DNA of 52,661 nt from a virus (Duplodnaviria; Caudoviricetes): positions 1-52,661 of the IMG/VR virus record IMGVR_UViG_3300042541_000817, one strand, 5' to 3'. The position numbers and the translations under genes were made by a program. The notes beneath the pieces were generated by a model. The model had not been told where the DNA came from. It did not search any database and saw only the letters and a list, made by a program, of their open reading frames with translations. Within the stretch, counting starts at the first letter, position 1. Every line of letters begins with the position of its first letter. Positions 3,397 to 9,261 of this stretch are shown piece after piece.

Positions 3397-3440
3397 ATGT
3401 CCGATATGTCTGAATTGTCCACACGTGCGGATTTTCTTTG

Positions 3441-3516
3441 CGATTCCGATGGGATTTGAACCCACGATCTCTACAGTGACAGTGTAGCGATTTAAACCAG
3501 ACTAATCTACGGAACC
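3441..3516 (-). tRNA. tRNA-Asp(GTC)
   Basis: cloverleaf: acceptor GGTTCCG/CGGAATC, anticodon stem CTACA/TGTAG with CT-GTC-AC loop, T-loop GTTCAAATC, discriminator G; no encoded CCA. Confidence 0.93.
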
Positions 3517-3522
3517 AAATGG

Positions 3523-3550
3523 TGAGCAGTTTTTATTCTTACTCAGGAAT
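3523..3550 (-). ncRNA. H-type pseudoknot motif copy 1
   Basis: ATTC-CTGAGTAA-GAAT-AAAAAC-TGCTC. Confidence 0.7.
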
Positions 3551-3558
3551 TTTTTTAA

Positions 3559-4575
3559 TTATGCAATCTGCAAAACATTTTGCACAACTTTTAGCAAACG
3601 ATTCTTTTCTGCATTGATAGCAGGGTCAAATCCGCTTGCGCTTGCAAGGATAGATTCGTTAGAACCACCACGAGCAGAACGATACCAATCAAGGCGTTCA
3701 GTTAGTGCATTGAAAGCACCCCACGCATTACCAGCAATCATTCCATTGAATTCGCCAGTGTAGATGTCATTGATAACATCAACCTTGTTTTCCCATTTCT
3801 TGAAAGCACCCTTAGAATCTTTTTCAGGCTTAGGGTATGCAGCAAGAATGATGTTGTTGAAATCTTGTGCGGTGATTTCTTTTTGAATCATAGCGTTAGC
3901 CATAACATCAAAAGAGTCCATGTACTTATGGGCAAGACCCAAAGTTTCACGAGCAACGGCAACCTTACCAGAAGCGGTCTGAGTGTGGCGAATCTTGAAA
4001 GATTGCTTGACACCATTCTTTTTCTTAGTAGTGTTTAGTGCAAGGTTAAGAGTGTTAGCGCATACAACACGAACAGGTGTGATACTTGCTTGAATAGCGA
4101 TTGAGCCATCGTGTGATGTATTGATAAGTAGATAAGTCTTGACCTTATCTGCAACACCGCTAGGGTCTAAGATTGTTTCACGCTCTAGTGCTAATGCACC
4201 GAATACGACACGACCACCCTTGATTGAACCAGCGGTTTCCCAACGACCTCCGCCATCGAGAATGTTATCACCGAATGAAAATAAATCTTCATTCTGCATA
4301 ACATGATAACGCTCACCAACGACACCAAGAATGTCGGTCTGAGAGTTGTCAGTAGGATTGGTACGCAATACATACTGATAGTTTTTGTCACTTGTTAAGT
4401 GTGATGGGGTTTCCAAATCCTCAAGACGAACATTCCAATTAGAAAGGCTTGCTAGGTCTAGCATTTCTTTTGTTGTTTTTTCCTCTGTGAATACGGTACC
4501 CAATCCATGCCAAGCGGGTTCACGAAATGATGCGAATGAAGCCTTACCATTTTGTGTTTCGATTTCATGTGCCAT
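3559..4575 (-). CDS. DUF932 family phage/plasmid-like protein
   Basis: REPAWHGLG, ETAGSIKGG and NTSHDGS..TPVRVVCANTL motifs; start moved to MAHEIE with RBS AAGGAG. Confidence 0.88.
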   Translation of the reverse strand: MAHEIETQNGKASFASFREPAWHGLGTVFTEEKTTKEMLDLASLSNWNVRLEDLETPSHLTSDKNYQYVLRTNPTDNSQTDILGVVGERYHVMQNEDLFSFGDNILDGGGRWETAGSIKGGRVVFGALALERETILDPSGVADKVKTYLLINTSHDGSIAIQASITPVRVVCANTLNLALNTTKKKNGVKQSFKIRHTQTASGKVAVARETLGLAHKYMDSFDVMANAMIQKEITAQDFNNIILAAYPKPEKDSKGAFKKWENKVDVINDIYTGEFNGMIAGNAWGAFNALTERLDWYRSARGGSNESILASASGFDPAINAEKNRLLKVVQNVLQIA

Positions 4576-4606
4576 GAGTTTTCTCCTTTTTTGTTGTTGA
4601 ATTTTA

Positions 4607-4736
4607 AGTATAGCAGGACGGGCTGACAAATGCAAATCGGGATAGTTAAACATGGGACAAATTGGACATTCCTTAATGTGATTAAATTCACATGATCGTA
4701 AAAGTTATCCACAGACTTATCCACAGGCCCCACGTG
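4607..4736 (-). promoter_or_regulatory. regulatory cassette: PafBC-type promoter, GGACA-N4-GGACA, CRP site, two DnaA boxes, CACGTG
   Basis: 4607-4628; 4655-4668; TGTGA-N6-TCACA 4677-4692; TTATCCACA 4705-4713 and 4717-4725; CACGTG 4731-4736. Confidence 0.75.
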
Positions 4737-4759
4737 TAAATTTTGCGGGAATTAAAAGT

Positions 4760-4787
4760 TGAGCAGTTTTAAAACATGCTCAGGTTT
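4760..4787 (-). ncRNA. H-type pseudoknot motif copy 2
   Basis: AAAC-CTGAGCAT-GTTT-TAAAAC-TGCTC. Confidence 0.7.
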
Positions 4788-4802
4788 ATTAGTAGCCCCC
4801 TA

Positions 4803-5231
4803 CTAAATATCTATACGGTCCACACTGGATGATAACCATGTGACATCATCTGAATTGTAAGATACAGTATCGAAATCAATATCATGAATTAGATTCTGTG
4901 CACTTTCTTCATCTCGTGCATTGACTGTAATTGAATAAAGAACTGTGACTTCCAATTCAAATTCTTTTGTTAACTCAAATCCGCAAATATCTGCAATTGC
5001 TTGTGCAGTCTCTTCTGAAATGGTACCGTCGTCCAAGTTTTCTAAGGTCCACTCTTGCATTTCATTACGCATACGAGAGCGCTCTGCAGCCTCACCATAT
5101 GAGCGCTGAGTTACTTTTTGAATGTGCTCTTCAAGTTGTTGAATGCGTTCTTTGTTTTGTACTAGAGTAGTTTCTAAAAACTCTCGTGTCATATAGTGTG
5201 TGTCTGTTGCTACTGTGATTGGTTGGTCCAT
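4803..5231 (-). CDS. acidic coiled-coil hypothetical protein
   Basis: ORF track; RBS GAAAGAGG; promoter at 5263-5292. Confidence 0.8.
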   Translation of the reverse strand: MDQPITVATDTHYMTREFLETTLVQNKERIQQLEEHIQKVTQRSYGEAAERSRMRNEMQEWTLENLDDGTISEETAQAIADICGFELTKEFELEVTVLYSITVNARDEESAQNLIHDIDFDTVSYNSDDVTWLSSSVDRIDI

Positions 5232-5262
5232 GGGGGCCTCTTTCTGTTAGTTGGTTAATTCA

Positions 5263-5292
5263 ATTGTACTGGGTGCCACTGACATTTGTCAA
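5263..5292 (-). promoter_or_regulatory. promoter with both TTGACA -35 and TGTCAG-N10-TACAAT
   Basis: TTGACA aa TGTCAG tggcacccag TACAAT. Confidence 0.7.
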
Positions 5293-5305
5293 GATCCCTT
5301 GCGGG

Positions 5306-5332
5306 GAGTAGTTTATACACATACTCAGGTGT
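5306..5332 (-). ncRNA. H-type pseudoknot motif copy 3
   Basis: ACAC-CTGAGTAT-GTGT-ATAAAC-TACTC; compensatory change in stem 2. Confidence 0.7.
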
Positions 5333-5387
5333 CTTATCTCAGGCATACCTACACATCAAGGCGTAGGGCTTAGCAGAGATAAATTAT

Positions 5388-5813
5388 TTAGAGATAACGA
5401 GCAACCGCATTGTAAGTGCTGGTGCTAACTACTTCCTCATCTGTCATCTTGAGAATACGAATTGCGTTAGACATTTCATCTACCATCTCGTTGTAGGTGT
5501 GTCTGTGGATTTGCTCAAAATTACGCTCAGGTTCAGCAGGAAAGTTTGTTCCGCTTTCTACCTTGATGTCAAAATCAACATTGAGAGTTTTGTTCCACTC
5601 ACGATAGTTCGTGCGTAGATTTTCTGCCTTTGAGATTTGACTAATAGCATACTTTACTAATTGTTCGTTCCAAGCCTTTTGTGCTTCTTGGAACTTTGCT
5701 TCGTTCTCATCTTGTGTTTTGTAGTTAGCCTCTAGTTCTGCTAACTTAGTTTCTAGTGCGTTGATAACTCTCTGTGTAGGTATCTTTACGCTAATTGCTT
5801 TTCCTCTTGCCAT
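5388..5813 (-). CDS. conserved phage hypothetical protein (coiled-coil)
   Basis: ORF track; RBS AAGGA. Confidence 0.8.
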   Translation of the reverse strand: MARGKAISVKIPTQRVINALETKLAELEANYKTQDENEAKFQEAQKAWNEQLVKYAISQISKAENLRTNYREWNKTLNVDFDIKVESGTNFPAEPERNFEQIHRHTYNEMVDEMSNAIRILKMTDEEVVSTSTYNAVARYL

Positions 5814-5853
5814 TGGGTCTGTTTCCTTTTCTTTGTTTTGTTAGGGGGTTGGT

Positions 5854-5891
5854 TGAGCAGTTTATTTATTATCTCATGCTCAGGAGATAAT
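5854..5891 (-). ncRNA. H-type pseudoknot motif copy 4
   Basis: ATTATCTC-CTGAGCAT-GAGATAAT-AAATAAAC-TGCTC (8-bp stem 1). Confidence 0.72.
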
Positions 5892-5898
5892 TGTCAAA

Positions 5899-6063
5899 CT
5901 ACTTGGCTGTCCAAGTTGTGTATCGTGGCTTGCCATTTACATCTAACTTGACACGAACATTTCCGTTAGCCTGTGGTGTGATTTCTGTGATGATACCACT
6001 TACCTTTGACTTTTGAGTTGTGTAGGTGTCGCCTACTTTGTAAGTTGCGGTTGCTACTGACAT
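5899..6063 (-). CDS. 54-aa SH3/KOW-like small beta protein (not in ORF track)
   Basis: MSVATATYKVGDTYTTQKSKVSGIITEITPQANGNVRVKLDVNGKPRYTTWTAK; RBS GAAGGG; own TTGACA-N18-CATAAT promoter. Confidence 0.75.
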   Translation of the reverse strand: MSVATATYKVGDTYTTQKSKVSGIITEITPQANGNVRVKLDVNGKPRYTTWTAK

Positions 6064-6161
6064 TTGTTTCCTTCTTTCTGTTAGGGTTTTGCTTACTATC
6101 TAATTATGACATTTCTTGGGAAAAATGTCAAGTCTAATTTGAGATTTCTCAAATAGTGAGA

Positions 6162-6332
6162 TTACTTGCTGGTCTTGACCATAGCCAAACGGCGTGAGCC
6201 ATTTGCTAGAACTAGACTAACTCTGGTAAGTTTATTAGACATTGGCTCAAAACTAGCAATACGACCTGTAATGCCTGTCTTGCTTGTCGTGAATAAATCA
6301 CCAATTTGGTATTGGTATCCTCCAAGGGTCAT
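6162..6332 (-). CDS. 56-aa SH3/KOW-like small beta protein, paralog of 5899-6063 (not in ORF track)
   Basis: MTLGGYQYQIGDLFTTSKTGITGRIASFEPMSNKLTRVSLVLANGSRRLAMVKTSK; RBS GAAAGG. Confidence 0.75.
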   Translation of the reverse strand: MTLGGYQYQIGDLFTTSKTGITGRIASFEPMSNKLTRVSLVLANGSRRLAMVKTSK

Positions 6333-6420
6333 TGTTCTGCCTTTCTGTTGTGGGGTTTTGCTTACTATCTAATTCTAGCAGAAAAATGTCAAAAATACCA
6401 ATTCAGCGGAGGATTTGGGG

Positions 6421-6484
6421 TGTGTCCTTAATCACATCTTAAAGGCGTGTCGTGACTTGACAGATCAAAGATTTTGCCCACGTG
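6421..6484. promoter_or_regulatory. CRP-like site, GACACGCC (WhiA-like) and CACGTG
   Basis: TGTGT-N6-TCACA 6421-6436; GGCGTGTC 6444-6451; CACGTG 6479-6484. Confidence 0.6.
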
Positions 6485-6566
6485 CCCTTTCGGGATTACT
6501 ACTGATACAAAAATAAAATAAATAAAAAAAATGCTAAGAACATCCATTGTGTTGAATTCATTTATC

Positions 6567-7289
6567 TCATTTCTTACTCGCAGAAAAAATTATGTCACTC
6601 TTAGAGTATACACAAAGTGAGCAAGAAACGCAAGCGCTTCCATTTGTTGAGATAAGCGGAATTTGTTTATTATTCTCAGGACACTTAGCAGCAGGCTTAC
6701 CAATCATTTCTTTTACATCTGCTTGACCAATAGCAAAATTCTTAGCAAGGTATGCCATGCGTACGCCACTATTAATTTTTAGGTCTACTGCGGTTTTTAC
6801 ATTCTCGCTATCTGCAGAAAAGTATAGGCTTAGATTATCAATACCCTTGAGCATTAGAGCAGCACTTGCTACACGAGTATAAACCCAAAATTGAATTTCA
6901 GGATGATTAAGTATTACATGCTTCCATGCGAATGTGTAGGTATCGTTAAAAAAGTCTCCGTCCCAATGAATACGGAATAGTTTAGGAGCGTCTTTCTTAT
7001 TGCAGTCTGCAACAAAATCAACAATCATTTCTTCAAGCAATGCTTTCATAGTATCATGGTCTGCGTCTTTAAGCAATGCCCAATTGTGTAATAGATTAGT
7101 TTTTACTGCGGGGAATAGTCTTTCGAGTTTTCCTGCGTAGCATACGCTTTCACATACGCTAGTGGCACCAGGGCACGAGAAAGCCTTTCCAGCAGGTAAT
7201 CCAAATGTGTTTGCGATACTTGCTTGTTTTCCATTTTTTGTGACAAGGTTAGCCACCTTCCTATCTTTAGAGCGTTTTAGTTTAGTCAT
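6567..7289 (-). CDS. Gp88-family protein (Cys-cluster, radical-SAM-like)
   Basis: FGLPAG..SCPGATSVCESVCYA, FRIHWDGDF, WVYTR and C-terminal CP..CxxCxLC motifs. Confidence 0.75.
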   Translation of the reverse strand: MTKLKRSKDRKVANLVTKNGKQASIANTFGLPAGKAFSCPGATSVCESVCYAGKLERLFPAVKTNLLHNWALLKDADHDTMKALLEEMIVDFVADCNKKDAPKLFRIHWDGDFFNDTYTFAWKHVILNHPEIQFWVYTRVASAALMLKGIDNLSLYFSADSENVKTAVDLKINSGVRMAYLAKNFAIGQADVKEMIGKPAAKCPENNKQIPLISTNGSACVSCSLCVYSKSDIIFSASKK

Positions 7290-7295
7290 GGGGTT

Positions 7296-7439
7296 CTACT
7301 TTCTTTCTTTAATTATAGCGGAGGGGTCTGACAATTTTTTTCTATTGTAGGTTTTCTTTGACGGAACACTTGAGGCAGCATTAGATCTACGCAACTCCAT
7401 AAGTCTGCGTAATTCCTCGGGTGTTTTCTTTTGTGTCAT
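7296..7439 (-). CDS. 47-aa very basic protein (not in ORF track)
   Basis: MTQKKTPEELRRLMELRRSNAASSVPSKKTYNRKKLSDPSAIIKERK; leaderless after TTGACA..TAAGAT. Confidence 0.65.
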   Translation of the reverse strand: MTQKKTPEELRRLMELRRSNAASSVPSKKTYNRKKLSDPSAIIKERK

Positions 7440-7484
7440 AAACTAATCTTAGCATACATGGGATAAAAATGTCAAATCTTAAAA

Positions 7485-7542
7485 TGTGATAAAGATCACA
7501 CGACGCACGTGGGCATTTTTATGCGGGGAAGTGCATAAAAAT
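7485..7542. promoter_or_regulatory. CRP site, CACGTG and terminator-like hairpin
   Basis: TGTGA-N6-TCACA 7485-7500; CACGTG 7506-7511; ATTTTTATGC/GCATAAAAAT inverted repeat. Confidence 0.6.
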
Positions 7543-7550
7543 ACTTTTAG

Positions 7551-7793
7551 TTATTCTATTGTTTCAATAAAAACATACAACGGAATTAAATCAGTGTAAG
7601 AATAATTGGCAAAGTCTAATTCATCAAATTCATTCTTAGTCTGAATACTCCAATTATCTGCAGTTGAATCACTTTCAATAAACATAACTTCAACAATGTC
7701 ATCACCGACTTTAATTAAATCGCCAATCATTAATTGATCTGGCTTGAGTTCATCTGCAAAGATTAGTTCCATGCTATTTATTGTATCAGACAT
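7551..7793 (-). CDS. acidic hypothetical protein
   Basis: ORF track; RBS AGGAGG. Confidence 0.75.
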   Translation of the reverse strand: MSDTINSMELIFADELKPDQLMIGDLIKVGDDIVEVMFIESDSTADNWSIQTKNEFDELDFANYSYTDLIPLYVFIETIE

Positions 7794-7794
7794 T

Positions 7795-8010
7795 TTACTT
7801 TCCTCCTACTTTTCCGTCACGATAAAAAATCTTGGTGTGCATTTTGCCATTAGGCTCTGAAAAATTGTAGGTTGCATAGTCATCTGCAAATCCCCAATCC
7901 ACAATTTTATTCCACTCGGTCACTGCGCTAATTGCGTCTGAATAACGACCAACCCAATGAGGTGAAGTATCATTATCATAGGTTGCAGTAATTGCGTATG
8001 AGTATTCCAT
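7795..8010 (-). CDS. hypothetical protein (DxGFAxDY..PxG..TK motif)
   Basis: ORF track; start moved to MEYSY; similar to the N-half of 35511-35966. Confidence 0.75.
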   Translation of the reverse strand: MEYSYAITATYDNDTSPHWVGRYSDAISAVTEWNKIVDWGFADDYATYNFSEPNGKMHTKIFYRDGKVGGK

Positions 8011-8011
8011 T

Positions 8012-8308
8012 TTAGTATTCCCTTTCAATAAGCCACGCATTTAGGTGGTGTTGTTCAATTATTGCATAAGCGGGGGCAGTAGTCAAACCCTTATAGGTTA
8101 TTCCTTCGGGCATAGGTATTTCCAAGTCCCATAGTCCTGCGTCATTTACTGCGTCAATAGCCTCAATACATACCGATACCATAGACTTAGGCACTGGCGG
8201 GTAGTGATTAGCAGATAAGTGAATACCTATCTGAGTTTCTAAATCAAGATGAATACCAAGATTATCAAGTGTTCCGTCTGCCATTTCTGTTGCAAAATTA
8301 CTTCCCAT
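8012..8308 (-). CDS. conserved actinophage-type hypothetical protein (HLxxNHYPPVP, HHLxAW)
   Basis: ORF track. Confidence 0.8.
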   Translation of the reverse strand: MGSNFATEMADGTLDNLGIHLDLETQIGIHLSANHYPPVPKSMVSVCIEAIDAVNDAGLWDLEIPMPEGITYKGLTTAPAYAIIEQHHLNAWLIEREY

Positions 8309-8541
8309 TATCGTGCTTCTCCGCTCATTAGTAGTTCAGGCTCACTTAGTAGCCCATTATCCCAAATAACACTTCCGTCATAGTCTAATAGTAATTCGTA
8401 GGGATTACACTCGCAAGTTTCTGAGTCAAAATCCTCGCCATTTCCCCAATACAAATTACCTTGACCATTACAAGCATTACAATTCTGTATCGCTCTTAGT
8501 GCGTATTCTAATTTATCCATTTTTTCCTTCTTTCTGTTCAT
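8308..8541 (-). CDS. DnaJ-type CxxCxGxG zinc-finger protein
   Basis: CNACNGQG...CECN; start at 8541 (leaderless) or 8520 (RBS). Confidence 0.7.
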   Translation of the reverse strand: MNRKKEKMDKLEYALRAIQNCNACNGQGNLYWGNGEDFDSETCECNPYELLLDYDGSVIWDNGLLSEPELLMSGEAR

Positions 8542-8590
8542 ACTGAAATCCTATCAGATAGGGCTGACATTTTCAACCCTACCCAACCAC

Positions 8591-9088
8591 TCACCAAGAC
8601 GAATGGTACGAAAAGGACAAATTGGACAATTCGGGTAGAGCAAGAATACGCTCTAATTGTTCAATAGTATTCTCTAGGTCACGCCAATACCATTGATCGA
8701 TATCTGTTCCACCAAAGAAAAATCCTTCTTGTGGTGGCAATAGGCTAGGGTCTTTATTTTCTAAAGAGTGCTTACAAATCGCAAGCAATTCTATTAATTT
8801 ATCTTGTGATACATAGTAGTCACCGCAGTCGTCAATTCCTTTTTGTACATTTTTGACAAACCAATTATGAATCTGATTAGCCTTGCGCCAATAAGCACAA
8901 GTCACTTCTACGCTTGCGCCATAGATATCTGTTGCGACATTGGATAATTGTGTTAATTCCATTAGGTTGTTGAATTGCGGATATACCGCTTCAGGTGAGT
9001 CATAAGATAATTCGTCATTATCTCTTAGTGCGTTCCAATTCACTTTTTCCAAGTGTTTCTTGGCTAGTAAGTACATATCTAATCCCAT
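8591..9088 (-). CDS. conserved phage hypothetical protein (MGLDMYL, YWRKANQIHNWF)
   Basis: ORF track; RBS GAAGG; motif common in phages. Confidence 0.85.
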   Translation of the reverse strand: MGLDMYLLAKKHLEKVNWNALRDNDELSYDSPEAVYPQFNNLMELTQLSNVATDIYGASVEVTCAYWRKANQIHNWFVKNVQKGIDDCGDYYVSQDKLIELLAICKHSLENKDPSLLPPQEGFFFGGTDIDQWYWRDLENTIEQLERILALPELSNLSFSYHSSW

Positions 9089-9116
9089 TGGATTACCTTC
9101 TTTCTTTTAGGCTTCT

Positions 9117-9227
9117 AGCCTATCATTTCCTACTGACAAAATCAAACCGACACGCCGTAAAATCTGGGGGAATATTAAAATGTGTCGTAAATCACCCTGT
9201 GTATAACCCTGTGGATAACCCCACGTG
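9117..9227 (-). promoter_or_regulatory. regulatory cassette: PafBC-type promoter, GACACGCC, CRP-like site, two DnaA boxes, CACGTG
   Basis: 9117-9138; 9149-9156; 9181-9196; TGTGTATAA 9198-9206 and TGTGGATAA 9210-9218; 9222-9227. Confidence 0.72.
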
Positions 9228-9234
9228 AAATTTT

Positions 9235-9261
9235 TGAGCAGTTTTAGATCATGCTCAGGAT
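9235..9261 (-). ncRNA. H-type pseudoknot motif copy 5
   Basis: ATC-CTGAGCAT-GAT-CTAAAAC-TGCTC. Confidence 0.68.

Follow-up and report, generated by a model that had tools for sequence, protein, structure and literature searches.

A compact RNA pseudoknot recurring behind phage genes resembles the coremin motif of eukaryotic RNA viruses and may cap the 3' ends of cistrons

The window, by which we mean the whole stretch of DNA analyzed here, is the complete 52,661-base contig of virus record IMGVR_UViG_3300042541_000817 (IMG/VR; Duplodnaviria, Caudoviricetes), with a G+C content of 38%. Its plus strand codes for portal, protease, major head, and tail-fiber proteins and a class II ribonucleotide reductase, and small genes, mostly unannotatable, form a minus-strand block within the first 15 kb. 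A sequence-only reading of this DNA had claimed five dispersed minus-strand copies of a compact RNA pseudoknot with a first helix (P1) that differs in sequence yet always pairs and a second helix (P2) with compensatory or wobble changes. We located all five copies with these pairings, using both a pattern and a covariance model, and all of them lie inside the block of small genes. Exactly five minus-strand copies of P1-C-UGAGYA-W-P1'-NNAAAC-URCUC(A) are present in the window, with an element length of 27 to 37 bases. The composite CTGAGYA-N(4-14)-AAACTRCTC gave five matches in the window versus none in 100 dinucleotide-preserving shuffles; the octamer CTGAGYAW by itself was not enriched in the window (11 versus 8.5 expected), and looser regular expressions added no window copy. 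A covariance model trained on 108 copies, including window copies A, C, D, and E, with copy B outside the training set, scored D at 50.0, E at 47.7, A at 42.6, C at 39.6, and B at 24.6 bits, and its next-best window match reached 8.5 bits (E value, 0.91).

Copy A (9236 to 9261; minus strand, as for all copies) forms P1 from 9261-9259 and 9250-9248 (AUC/GAU) around the loop CUGAGCAU (9258-9251), followed by loop L3, CUAAAAC (9247-9241), the 3' strand of P2, UGCUC (9240-9236), and then A9235. Upstream is a possible 33-codon open reading frame (ORF), whose TAG (9271-9269) is 7 nucleotides (nt) from the start of P1 and 10 nt from that of the loop, and on the 3' side of the copy are a CACGTG box (9227-9222), two DnaA-box-like 9-mers (9218-9198), and a weak promoter-like site. 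Copy B (5855 to 5891) has a long P1 (5891-5884/5875-5868, AUUAUCUC/GAGAUAAU), its loop at 5883-5876, the L3 AAAUAAAC at 5867-5860, and the 3' strand of P2 at 5859-5855; P1 starts 7 nt after the TAG (5901-5899) of the ORF at 5899-6063, and the next gene starts at 5813. Copy B is overlapped by a promoter-like TTGACA-18-GATAAT (5897-5868, minus strand) that has an upstream TG and was called strong. The -10 of this site falls within the 3' arm of the unusually long 8-bp P1, so transcripts initiated there would be without the knot. Copy C together with an adjoining hairpin spans 5296 to 5332, with the pseudoknot itself at 5306-5332: P1 at 5332-5329/5320-5317 (ACAC/GUGU), loop CUGAGUAU at 5328-5321, L3 AUAAAC at 5316-5311, and the P2 3' strand UACUC at 5310-5306. 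It is directly abutted by a 3-bp GCAA hairpin, CCCGCAAGGG (5305-5296), which makes it the only window copy with an hp2-like hairpin, and a promoter-like TTGACA-18-TACAAT (5292-5263) stands directly 3'.

Copy D (4761 to 4787) consists of P1 at 4787-4784/4775-4772 (AAAC/GUUU), the loop CUGAGCAU at 4783-4776, L3 UAAAAC at 4771-4766, and the P2 3' strand at 4765-4761. Its P1 lies 15 nt past the double stop TAGTAG (4805-4800) of the ORF at 4803-5231; on its 3' side are a UUUU run, a CACGTG box (4736-4731), two TGTGGATAA boxes (4725-4705), and a promoter-like site (4629-4601). Copy E (3524 to 3550) has P1 at 3550-3547/3538-3535 (AUUC/GAAU), the loop CUGAGUAA at 3546-3539, L3 AAAAAC at 3534-3529, and the P2 3' strand UGCUC at 3528-3524, then ACCAUUU. 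It starts 8 nt past the TAA of a DUF932 (phrog_1221) gene (3559 to 4653, minus strand) and, as the sequence-only reading had noted, ends 7 nt ahead of a tRNA-Asp gene (GUC anticodon; 3440 to 3516, minus strand; 64.2 bits to RF00005; CCA not encoded). P2 is GAGCA/UGCUC in copies A, B, and D, GAGUA/UACUC in C, and GAGUA/UGCUC in E. The copies are 545 to 3,353 nt apart, each behind a different gene, and 11 to 17 nt separate their P2 half-sites. The related claim that all copies lie just downstream of stop codons held for A, B, D, and E (7 to 15 nt) and failed for C, which is 55 nt past the stop at 5388 (ORF 5388-5813).

The promoter-like site of the next gene comes only after copies A, C, and D, and that gene's own transcript would therefore not contain them. 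The early region carries tandem promoter-like sites. A terminator scan called none of the window copies, and from 3.3 to 9.5 kb it found no canonical terminator on the minus strand. At other unit ends in the same region, plain hairpins occupy the place equivalent to that of the knot. Two such knot-free unit ends on the minus strand, at about 7545-7515 and 6530-6485, precede a CACGTG box; the feature found there is either an A+U-rich hairpin of 10 bp or a CCCGAAAGGG hairpin that comes after a T-rich stretch.

We refined the consensus to a classical H-type pseudoknot. Its first stem (S1, or P1) is 3 to 8 bp long and free in sequence except for a conserved closing C-G pair, its first loop (L1) is one nucleotide, C, and its second stem (S2, or P2) pairs UGAGYA with URCUCA over 5 to 6 bp, with a junction of 0 to 1 nt (A/U). 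L3 is A-rich (NNAAAC, ending AAAC) and, by analogy with solved pseudoknots of the same type, should occupy the S1 minor groove. In an ungapped alignment of 108 distinct copies from phage contigs, the closing pair of P1 was C-G in 105 copies, as it was in all five window copies. The next pair (7-18) was UA in 55 copies, AU in 45, CG in 5, GC in 1, and unpaired in 2, and the third pair (6-19) was GC in 38, AU in 30, CG in 22, UA in 16, GU in 1, and unpaired in 1; a fourth pair formed in 75% of the aligned copies. The covariation score for P1 was 0.354, compared to 0.132 for shuffled columns (none of 500 shuffles reached the observed score) and at most 0.086 when the partner strand was slid.

The search pattern had fixed AAAC, U.C, and most of P2 in the phage set, so that conservation at those positions is ascertainment. 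At the free P2 position (Y/R), 140 unique copies had C-G in 92, U-G in 30, U-A in 14, and C-A in 4 (Fisher P = 2e-5). Metatranscriptome contigs from four runs contain relatives of the early region that are 90 to 99% identical, and in these a C for U at 3541 converts the U-G pair of copy E to C-G. We also left both P2 strands free in a test on 1.92 Mb of fetched loci, for which sites had to have a C-G-closed P1 of at least 3 bp, a loop starting with CU, and AAAC in register. Nineteen sites had a noncanonical 5' strand, and in 8 of the 19 the strands were fully complementary (AAGCA/UGCUU four times, GGACA/UGUCC twice, and GGGCG/CGCCC and GGGCA/UGCUC once each); none of 2,000 permutations reached 8. 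Nested folding of the copies, by a method that cannot score pseudoknots, chose only one of the helices, P2 or P1 (-4.2 to -10.2 kcal/mol). These findings show that both helices are kept by compensatory change, and we are nearly certain that the structure and the family are real.

Scanning of viral contigs with the pattern returned at least 119 loci, and a version of it in which the 3' strand of P2 was reversed, run as a control, returned at least 117. The raw number of matches is therefore no evidence, and only the features of the matches differ. Among the matches listed, from which all host range and abundance figures given here also come (host phyla being taken from record titles), a gap of exactly 7 nt occurred in 107 of 148 real matches versus a flat distribution in the control. 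A C stood ahead of the loop in 137/148 versus 17/117, P1 had at least 3 bp in 137/148 versus 18/117, and 19 loci versus none carried multiple copies. Two contigs related to the window contain five and eight copies, each contig's copies all on one strand. DUF932 homologues were present in 19 of the 119 fetched phage loci, and their median distance to the pseudoknot that follows was 9 nt. This was the largest protein family, and no partner protein was shared across the 119 loci. Since no family was more widespread than DUF932, the copies do not represent one lineage.

The copies are attached to the 3' side of co-oriented genes. With ORF calls that are crude in the fetched loci, 122 of the 152 phage-locus copies were intergenic, and of the 116 copies with an upstream gene, 105 shared its strand. 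We measured the distance from the stop-codon end of the preceding ORF (at least 50 codons) to the first loop base in the 85 scorable copies: none had 4 to 8 nt, 21 had 9 nt, 40 had 10 to 15 nt, and 24 had other distances. Nine nucleotides is thus both a hard minimum and the mode. The distance to the next start codon was broad (9 to 299 nt; median, 53). The preceding stop codons (n = 76) were ordinary ones, TAA in 55, TAG in 15, and TGA in 6, and the in-frame extensions past the stop were short (median of 11 codons in 59 cases), indicating that the element is not a read-through signal. A same-strand tRNA followed within 200 nt downstream of 22 copies, at 4 to 13 nt in 14 of them, and a tRNA lay upstream of only 2. 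U-runs of at least four within 12 nt downstream were found in 32 of 150 copies, compared to 1/150 and 6/150 in controls. The 3' flank was enriched for A (65%), C (44%), and C (39%), with ACC in 24/150 and ACCA in 14/150, and a U stands before the G-C first pair of P2. Taken together, the placement data show an element outside reading frames, on the 3' side of a co-oriented gene.

One match of the pattern, L041, was on a 4.8-kb contig with a 906-residue ORF that has viral RNA-dependent RNA polymerase (RdRp) domains and a chymotrypsin-like protease motif, which identify it as a sobemo-like plus-strand RNA virus; its knot lies 12 nt past the polyprotein stop. A single-sequence scan for relatives returned only L041 itself. 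We fetched 80 relatives by alignment, and in 56 of these the RdRp ORF ends within the contig. A pseudoknot of the same design was present within 70 nt past the RdRp stop in 21 of the 56, against a background rate of 4.5% per stretch searched. In these viruses P1 starts 1 to 12 nt past the RdRp stop, and the knot occupies the intergenic region before the capsid ORFs. S2 is varied (UGAGU/ACUCA, UGAGG/CCUCA, UUCCUA/UAGGAA, UGCCA/UGGUA, and others), and the phage-derived covariance model detected six of the copies at E values below 0.01. In the RNA-virus copies, for which no spacer pattern had been fixed, (U)UAAAC or UAAA recurs. Because RNA viruses have no DNA stage, these occurrences indicate that the element works as RNA, as does its co-orientation with the upstream gene in the phage loci. 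The central proposal of the sequence-only reading, a functional H-type RNA pseudoknot, is strongly supported by helices that covary in more than 100 independent phage contigs, by gene co-orientation, and by occurrence in RNA viruses. Further features of the sobemo-like contigs were seen. Directly 3' of the pseudoknot, AUGUU(G) is conserved in many of contigs L239-L318, and several of these contigs contain a CCCUG...CAGGG hairpin. Directly upstream of ORF2 are G-rich tracts, GGUGG or GGAGG, that resemble Shine-Dalgarno sequences.

A scan of bacterial contigs produced mostly chance matches, and about two dozen (24) of the 80 titled loci listed conform to the design. The conforming loci come from Saccharibacteria and other members of the candidate phyla radiation, Firmicutes, Aminicenantes, Bacteroidota, Actinomycetota, Chloroflexota, and a Calothrix. 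None of the 24 is proteobacterial, although 14 of the 80 titled loci listed are (P = 0.008). Their neighbors are prophage structural genes or mobile-DNA cargo (ArdA, DUF3768, DUF2958, a DdrB-like protein, and DUF932). On the Calothrix contig L165 (2368-3870), three consecutive genes, including ardA, each have one pseudoknot copy behind them. The element may be typical of early-expressed antidefense clusters of incoming DNA. RNase J (TIGR00649) was found in three of five motif-bearing host genomes; the two without a match are possibly incomplete metagenome-assembled genomes. Among named phages, the cultured-community Christensenellales phage NatCom_6392 (PV036419.1) carries one copy (6093-6128) behind an unannotated plus-strand 64-codon ORF. 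No copy was found in the DUF932 locus of Streptomyces phage Teutsch or in the whole record of cyanophage S-CREM1, and the whole record of S-WAM1 gave only one weak match (17.8 bits). In PV036419.1, small minus-strand GenBank coding sequences overlie the 64-codon ORF (about 5896-6128), which has a good ribosome-binding site, and are probably a misannotation.

We compared the element with known RNAs. Rfam 15, searched at gathering thresholds and at E values up to 10, contained no match for the window copies or the RNA-virus copies. Our literature search found no report of the element in phages, and papers that matched stretches of its sequence contained only unrelated primers and siRNAs. The recurrent GACGUUAAAC of the RNA-virus copies led us to the coremin motif, or exoribonuclease-resistant RNA (xrRNA) of class xrRNA-C, and we found no paper that treats this motif and phages together. 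In the parts available, three coremin papers by Dilweg, Gultyaev, Olsthoorn, and co-workers (PMC10520033, PMC10321173, and PMC6546385) make no mention of phages or bacteria, and two RNA-catalogue papers do not describe the element; the 10,006 candidate RNAs of phages and viruses in PMC10690425 may list the motif unnamed.

Coremin is a hairpin of 3 to 5 bp with an obligatory C-G closing pair (PMC6546385). Its loop is YGAD or YGNNAD, with seven- and eight-base loops also known, and it is followed by a spacer, GUUAAACUAC, with an essential AAACUA; the sequence given in the paper starts GUCCGAAGACGUUAAACUAC (PMC10520033). A second hairpin is needed for stalling of the exoribonuclease Xrn1 (PMC6546385 and PMC10520033). 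In the Watson-Crick type (xrRNA-WCC), three loop bases pair with the spacer, and adenosines have been proposed to lie in the S1 minor groove (PMC10321173). The motif stalls Xrn1 and scanning ribosomes (PMC6546385 and PMC10520033), promotes -1 frameshifting, for which a screen was run in Escherichia coli (PMC10321173), and is located in 3' untranslated or intergenic regions, at or just past stop codons (PMC10520033).

The phage knot shares with coremin a short first helix with a C-G closing pair (105 of 108 phage copies), pairing between loop and spacer (S2), and a location behind stop codons. Its loop, CUGAGYAW, fits coremin at the first pyrimidine and the final A-(A/U), and the AAACU(R)C spacer of coremin is matched by AAACU(G/A)C in all five window copies; GUCCGAAGACGUUAAACUAC of coremin compares with GUGUAUAAACUACUC in window copy C and with GACGUUAAAC in many RNA-virus copies. 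Several features differ. S2 has five or six Watson-Crick pairs in the phage knot versus zero to three in coremin, and the phage loop has 8 nt with U at position 2 and G third, whereas coremin requires G at position 2. The second hairpin is not enriched: a hairpin of at least 4 bp beginning 0 to 3 nt past P2 was present in 19 of 149 phage copies, compared to 20/149 at +40 nt and 11.2 +/- 2.5 in shuffles, and in 5 of 20 RNA-virus copies. The phage knot belongs to double-stranded DNA phages and bacterial mobile DNA, often with multiple copies per operon, whereas coremin belongs to eukaryotic RNA viruses. By likeness of sequence and pairing, coremin/xrRNA-C is the closest known relative of the phage knot, and the analogy suggests that the two are probably related and work alike. 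Due to the U at loop position 2 and the lack of second-hairpin enrichment, we did not file the element as a strict coremin member. Its novelty is below what the sequence-only reading assumed, since a related motif has been characterized in eukaryotic RNA viruses.

We also compared the element with other RNAs. The -1 frameshift and read-through pseudoknots of the luteovirid and retroviral type are compact H-type folds with an L1 of 1 to 2 nt, an extruded junction base, and an A-rich 3' loop, and recoding pseudoknots lie 5 to 9 nt past the A-site codon. The phage knot resembles them in compact fold and spacing; unlike frameshift pseudoknots, it stands after a stop codon, has no slippery-site requirement, and is not followed by an extended in-frame ORF. 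Stabilizing 3' stem-loops and terminators, including the T4 intercistronic UUCG hairpins, also stand behind cistrons. The phage knot shares with them its operon position directly behind a cistron, with a U-run next in 21%, and some knots are followed by GCAA or UUCG tetraloop hairpins; it differs in being a pseudoknot with conserved loop sequences, mostly without a U-tract, rather than a G+C-rich hairpin, and most copies lie within operons or before tRNAs, where termination would be harmful. As in pseudoknotted tRNA-like acceptor arms, which serve as model substrates of RNase P, pairing joins a hairpin loop to the 3' strand, the G-C first pair has a U before it, and ACC(A) follows in a minority of copies. 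The phage knot has no equivalent of a T-loop or anticodon arm, CCA is absent in most copies, and neither ARAGORN nor the Rfam tRNA model calls the pseudoknot element.

For the function, we tentatively favor a mechanical roadblock that needs no protein and sets the 3' boundary of the upstream cistron as a cap, a reading, partly by analogy, that we rate somewhat short of an even chance. Each copy would be transcribed from the gene strand and fold into the compact H-type pseudoknot, which, judging from coremin, would act without a dedicated protein and block enzymes that thread single-stranded RNA. Transcriptional read-through, termination at a U-tract behind the knot, or a cut, made by an endonuclease or by RNase P at the next tRNA, could leave a new 3' end; 3'-to-5' exonucleases would then trim to the knot and halt, and the translated ORF ahead of it would remain intact. 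The knot would stand as near to the stop codon as a terminating ribosome permits, leaving no naked RNA between ribosome and knot. The 9-nt minimum would fit how far a terminating ribosome extends along the mRNA through its channel. We favor the 3' cap because the element tracks the upstream stop codon and not the downstream ribosome-binding site and because it precedes tRNAs rather than following them, such that an RNase P cut would leave it 4 to 13 nt from the 3' end. Furthermore, a fifth of the copies are directly followed by a U-tract, window copies A, C, and D precede the next promoter-like site, and equivalent knot-free unit ends carry plain hairpins. Of the functions that the sequence-only reading had listed as candidates, a block to exonucleases or translocases has the strongest support, from the position of the knot and its resemblance to the coremin xrRNA; a processing signal or a protein tag, also on that list, is a lesser candidate.

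Several observations weigh against the 3' cap. All expression data come from metatranscriptome contigs, from which the ends, strand, and level of an RNA cannot be read. Characterized coremin blocks a 5'-to-3' enzyme and not a 3'-to-5' one, the phage form is mostly without the second hairpin (19/149 versus 20/149 in the control), and frameshift-type pseudoknots without this hairpin failed to stall Xrn1 (PMC10321173). In the RNA viruses the knot is genome-internal, where a 3' cap is less sensible than a 5'-to-3' block. No U-tract follows 79% of the copies, 30 of the 152 phage-locus copies overlap a crudely called ORF, and promoter-like sites are not generally enriched 3' of the knot (12/133 versus 12/133 further downstream). 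Finally, the pile-up at the minimum stop distance could stem from genome compaction alone.

The chief rival to the 3' cap is a true xrRNA that would block 5'-to-3' exoribonucleases (bacterial RNase J, or Xrn1 or Xrn4 for the RNA viruses) or 5'-end-dependent RNase E scanning, so that decay begun upstream would not spread to the cistron, tRNA, or subgenomic portion further downstream. Such activity has been demonstrated for the closest known motif (PMC6546385 and PMC10520033), and a flaviviral xrRNA, of another class, also stops bacterial RNase J1 in vitro (PMC5760640). An xrRNA suits the RNA viruses better than a 3' cap does: 21 of 56 sobemo-like viruses have the knot ahead of capsid ORFs, where coremin-type motifs are likewise reported (PMC10520033). 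It would also explain the proteobacterial gap among the loci listed (0/24 conforming versus 14/80 titled; P = 0.008). RNase J is not known from many Gamma- and Betaproteobacteria. The detection of RNase J in three of five motif-bearing host genomes is uninformative, and it was not found in the other two, which may be incomplete. The tracking of the upstream stop codon rather than the downstream ribosome-binding site argues against an xrRNA, as do the three of five window copies that lie upstream of the next promoter-like site and the bias toward positions before tRNAs (22 before versus 2 after), given that protection would be needed at the freshly cut 5' end of the downstream mRNA. There is no enrichment of the second hairpin, on which Xrn1 resistance of coremin depends, and loop position 2 is U; a coremin loop tested with C instead of G at this position (CCGAAA) lost Xrn1 resistance (PMC10520033). 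We therefore regard a true xrRNA as unlikely, though it deserves serious consideration. A knot directed at the ribosome, standing at the mRNA entry channel with the stop codon in the A site and blocking read-through and posttermination sliding or scanning, would uncouple neighboring cistrons or keep ribosomes off a downstream regulatory RNA. The sharp 9-nt minimum and mode match the spacer geometry of recoding pseudoknots, and coremin is a block to scanning ribosomes and a stimulator of frameshifting, the latter in E. coli as well (PMC10520033 and PMC10321173). We consider this reading improbable, since no recoding product is evident (UAA precedes 55 of 76 copies, copy D follows a double stop, and extensions have a median of 11 codons in 59 cases) and about one-third of the scorable copies are more than 15 nt from the stop, as is window copy C at 55 nt.

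Still less probable is a pseudoknotted intrinsic terminator or RNA polymerase pause signal, which in RNA viruses would correspond to an attenuator of minus-strand synthesis yielding a subgenomic RNA template. The excess of U-runs (32/150 versus 1/150 and 6/150 in controls) and an early region with tandem promoter-like sites and no canonical minus-strand terminator from 3.3 to 9.5 kb are consistent with it, but 118 of 150 copies have no U-run, only D does among the five window copies, and termination at copies directly before tRNAs or within tight operons would silence the downstream genes. Plant-virus tRNA-like acceptor arms are cleaved by RNase P in vitro, and their pseudoknotted topology is like that of the phage knot. 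The element could by this likeness mimic a tRNA acceptor arm or be a recognized tag, either an RNase P site at which operons are divided into cistrons or the target of a phage or host protein. The A-C-C enrichment of the 3' flank (ACC in 24/150, ACCA in 14/150) and the U ahead of the G-C first pair of P2 agree with such a role, and the universality of RNase P would fit the spread across phyla. Most copies are without CC, however, in the RNA-virus copies it is AUGUU that is conserved on the 3' side, no protein family is common to the fetched loci (DUF932 is the largest, at 19/119), and cleavage within the loop would destroy the conserved fold; we rank this possibility lower again. A remaining group of explanations we hold to be very improbable. 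P2 is a short inverted repeat whose opposite strand can form a hairpin too, as expected for a DNA-level site (a palindromic TGAGCA...TGCTCA operator or a single-stranded DNA hairpin), but the half-site spacer has no constant length in the window (11 to 17 nt) and the P1 within it always pairs, occurrence is strand specific and follows gene orientation, and RNA viruses have the element. H-type topology with an A-rich tail is like that of preQ1-I riboswitches, yet there is no Rfam match at E up to 10, the 0- to 1-nt junction leaves no ligand pocket, and the copies stand behind genes and not in 5' leaders. A mimic of type III antitoxin RNAs, which are repeated in tandem beside an endoribonuclease toxin gene, was another candidate of the sequence-only reading and does not fit copies that are dispersed (545 to 3,353 nt apart) rather than tandem, a P1 of free sequence, and the lack of an Rfam family match. 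Chance is countered by the absence of matches in shuffled sequences.

Taken further, the knot of phages and bacterial mobile elements may be a protein-free roadblock of coremin design and the first exoribonuclease- or translocase-resistant class from prokaryotic viruses, in which case one module would span virus realms and host domains through descent, transfer, or convergence; we judge this less likely than not. As a bolder corollary, the knot-bearing sobemo-like viruses with GGAGG-like tracts may infect bacteria. If the roadblock reading is true, nuclease-blocking viral RNA knots extend from eukaryotic RNA viruses to double-stranded DNA phages, prophages, and conjugative or antirestriction clusters and would constitute a general viral means of setting the ends and lifetimes of mRNA segments. 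For the loop-spacer helix, which the coremin papers term "unelucidated," hundreds of natural variants provide evidence by covariation, and the natural long-S2 form should crystallize more easily. A self-contained marker of about 30 nt for a true cistron end would aid annotation, as with the hidden 64-codon ORF of PV036419.1, and the element is a candidate part for stabilizing or insulating bacterial mRNAs. The apparent proteobacterial absence, if it holds, would tie a phage RNA design to the RNase repertoire of the host.

The remaining observations concern the early region of the window. The possible 33-codon ORF ahead of copy A (9370-9269, minus strand) has a GTG start, codes for a strongly hydrophobic product, and is below the size of the ORF lists. 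Because copy A obeys the stop-distance rule behind it, this ORF is suggested to be real. On the minus strand, a CACGTG(G/C)G box occurs five times upstream of promoter-like sites (9227-9198, 7511, 6480, 4736-4705, and 3430). Two of these boxes are followed by paired DnaA-box-like 9-mers, TTATCCACA and TTATACACA at 9218-9198 and TGTGGATAA twice at 4725-4705, and the sites look like a repeated operator module of the early region, to which host DnaA or a phage regulator might bind. Near and distant DNA searches of cultured phages found no relatives of the region except a tRNA and one gene fragment. Metatranscriptome contigs of two studies join 4682 to 9210, omitting 4.5 kb, via a short CACGTG/DnaA-box hybrid, and relatives of the window phage seem to recombine at the CACGTG/DnaA-box modules. 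Several contigs of relatives also diverge exactly at pseudoknots (5896, 9263, and 9235).

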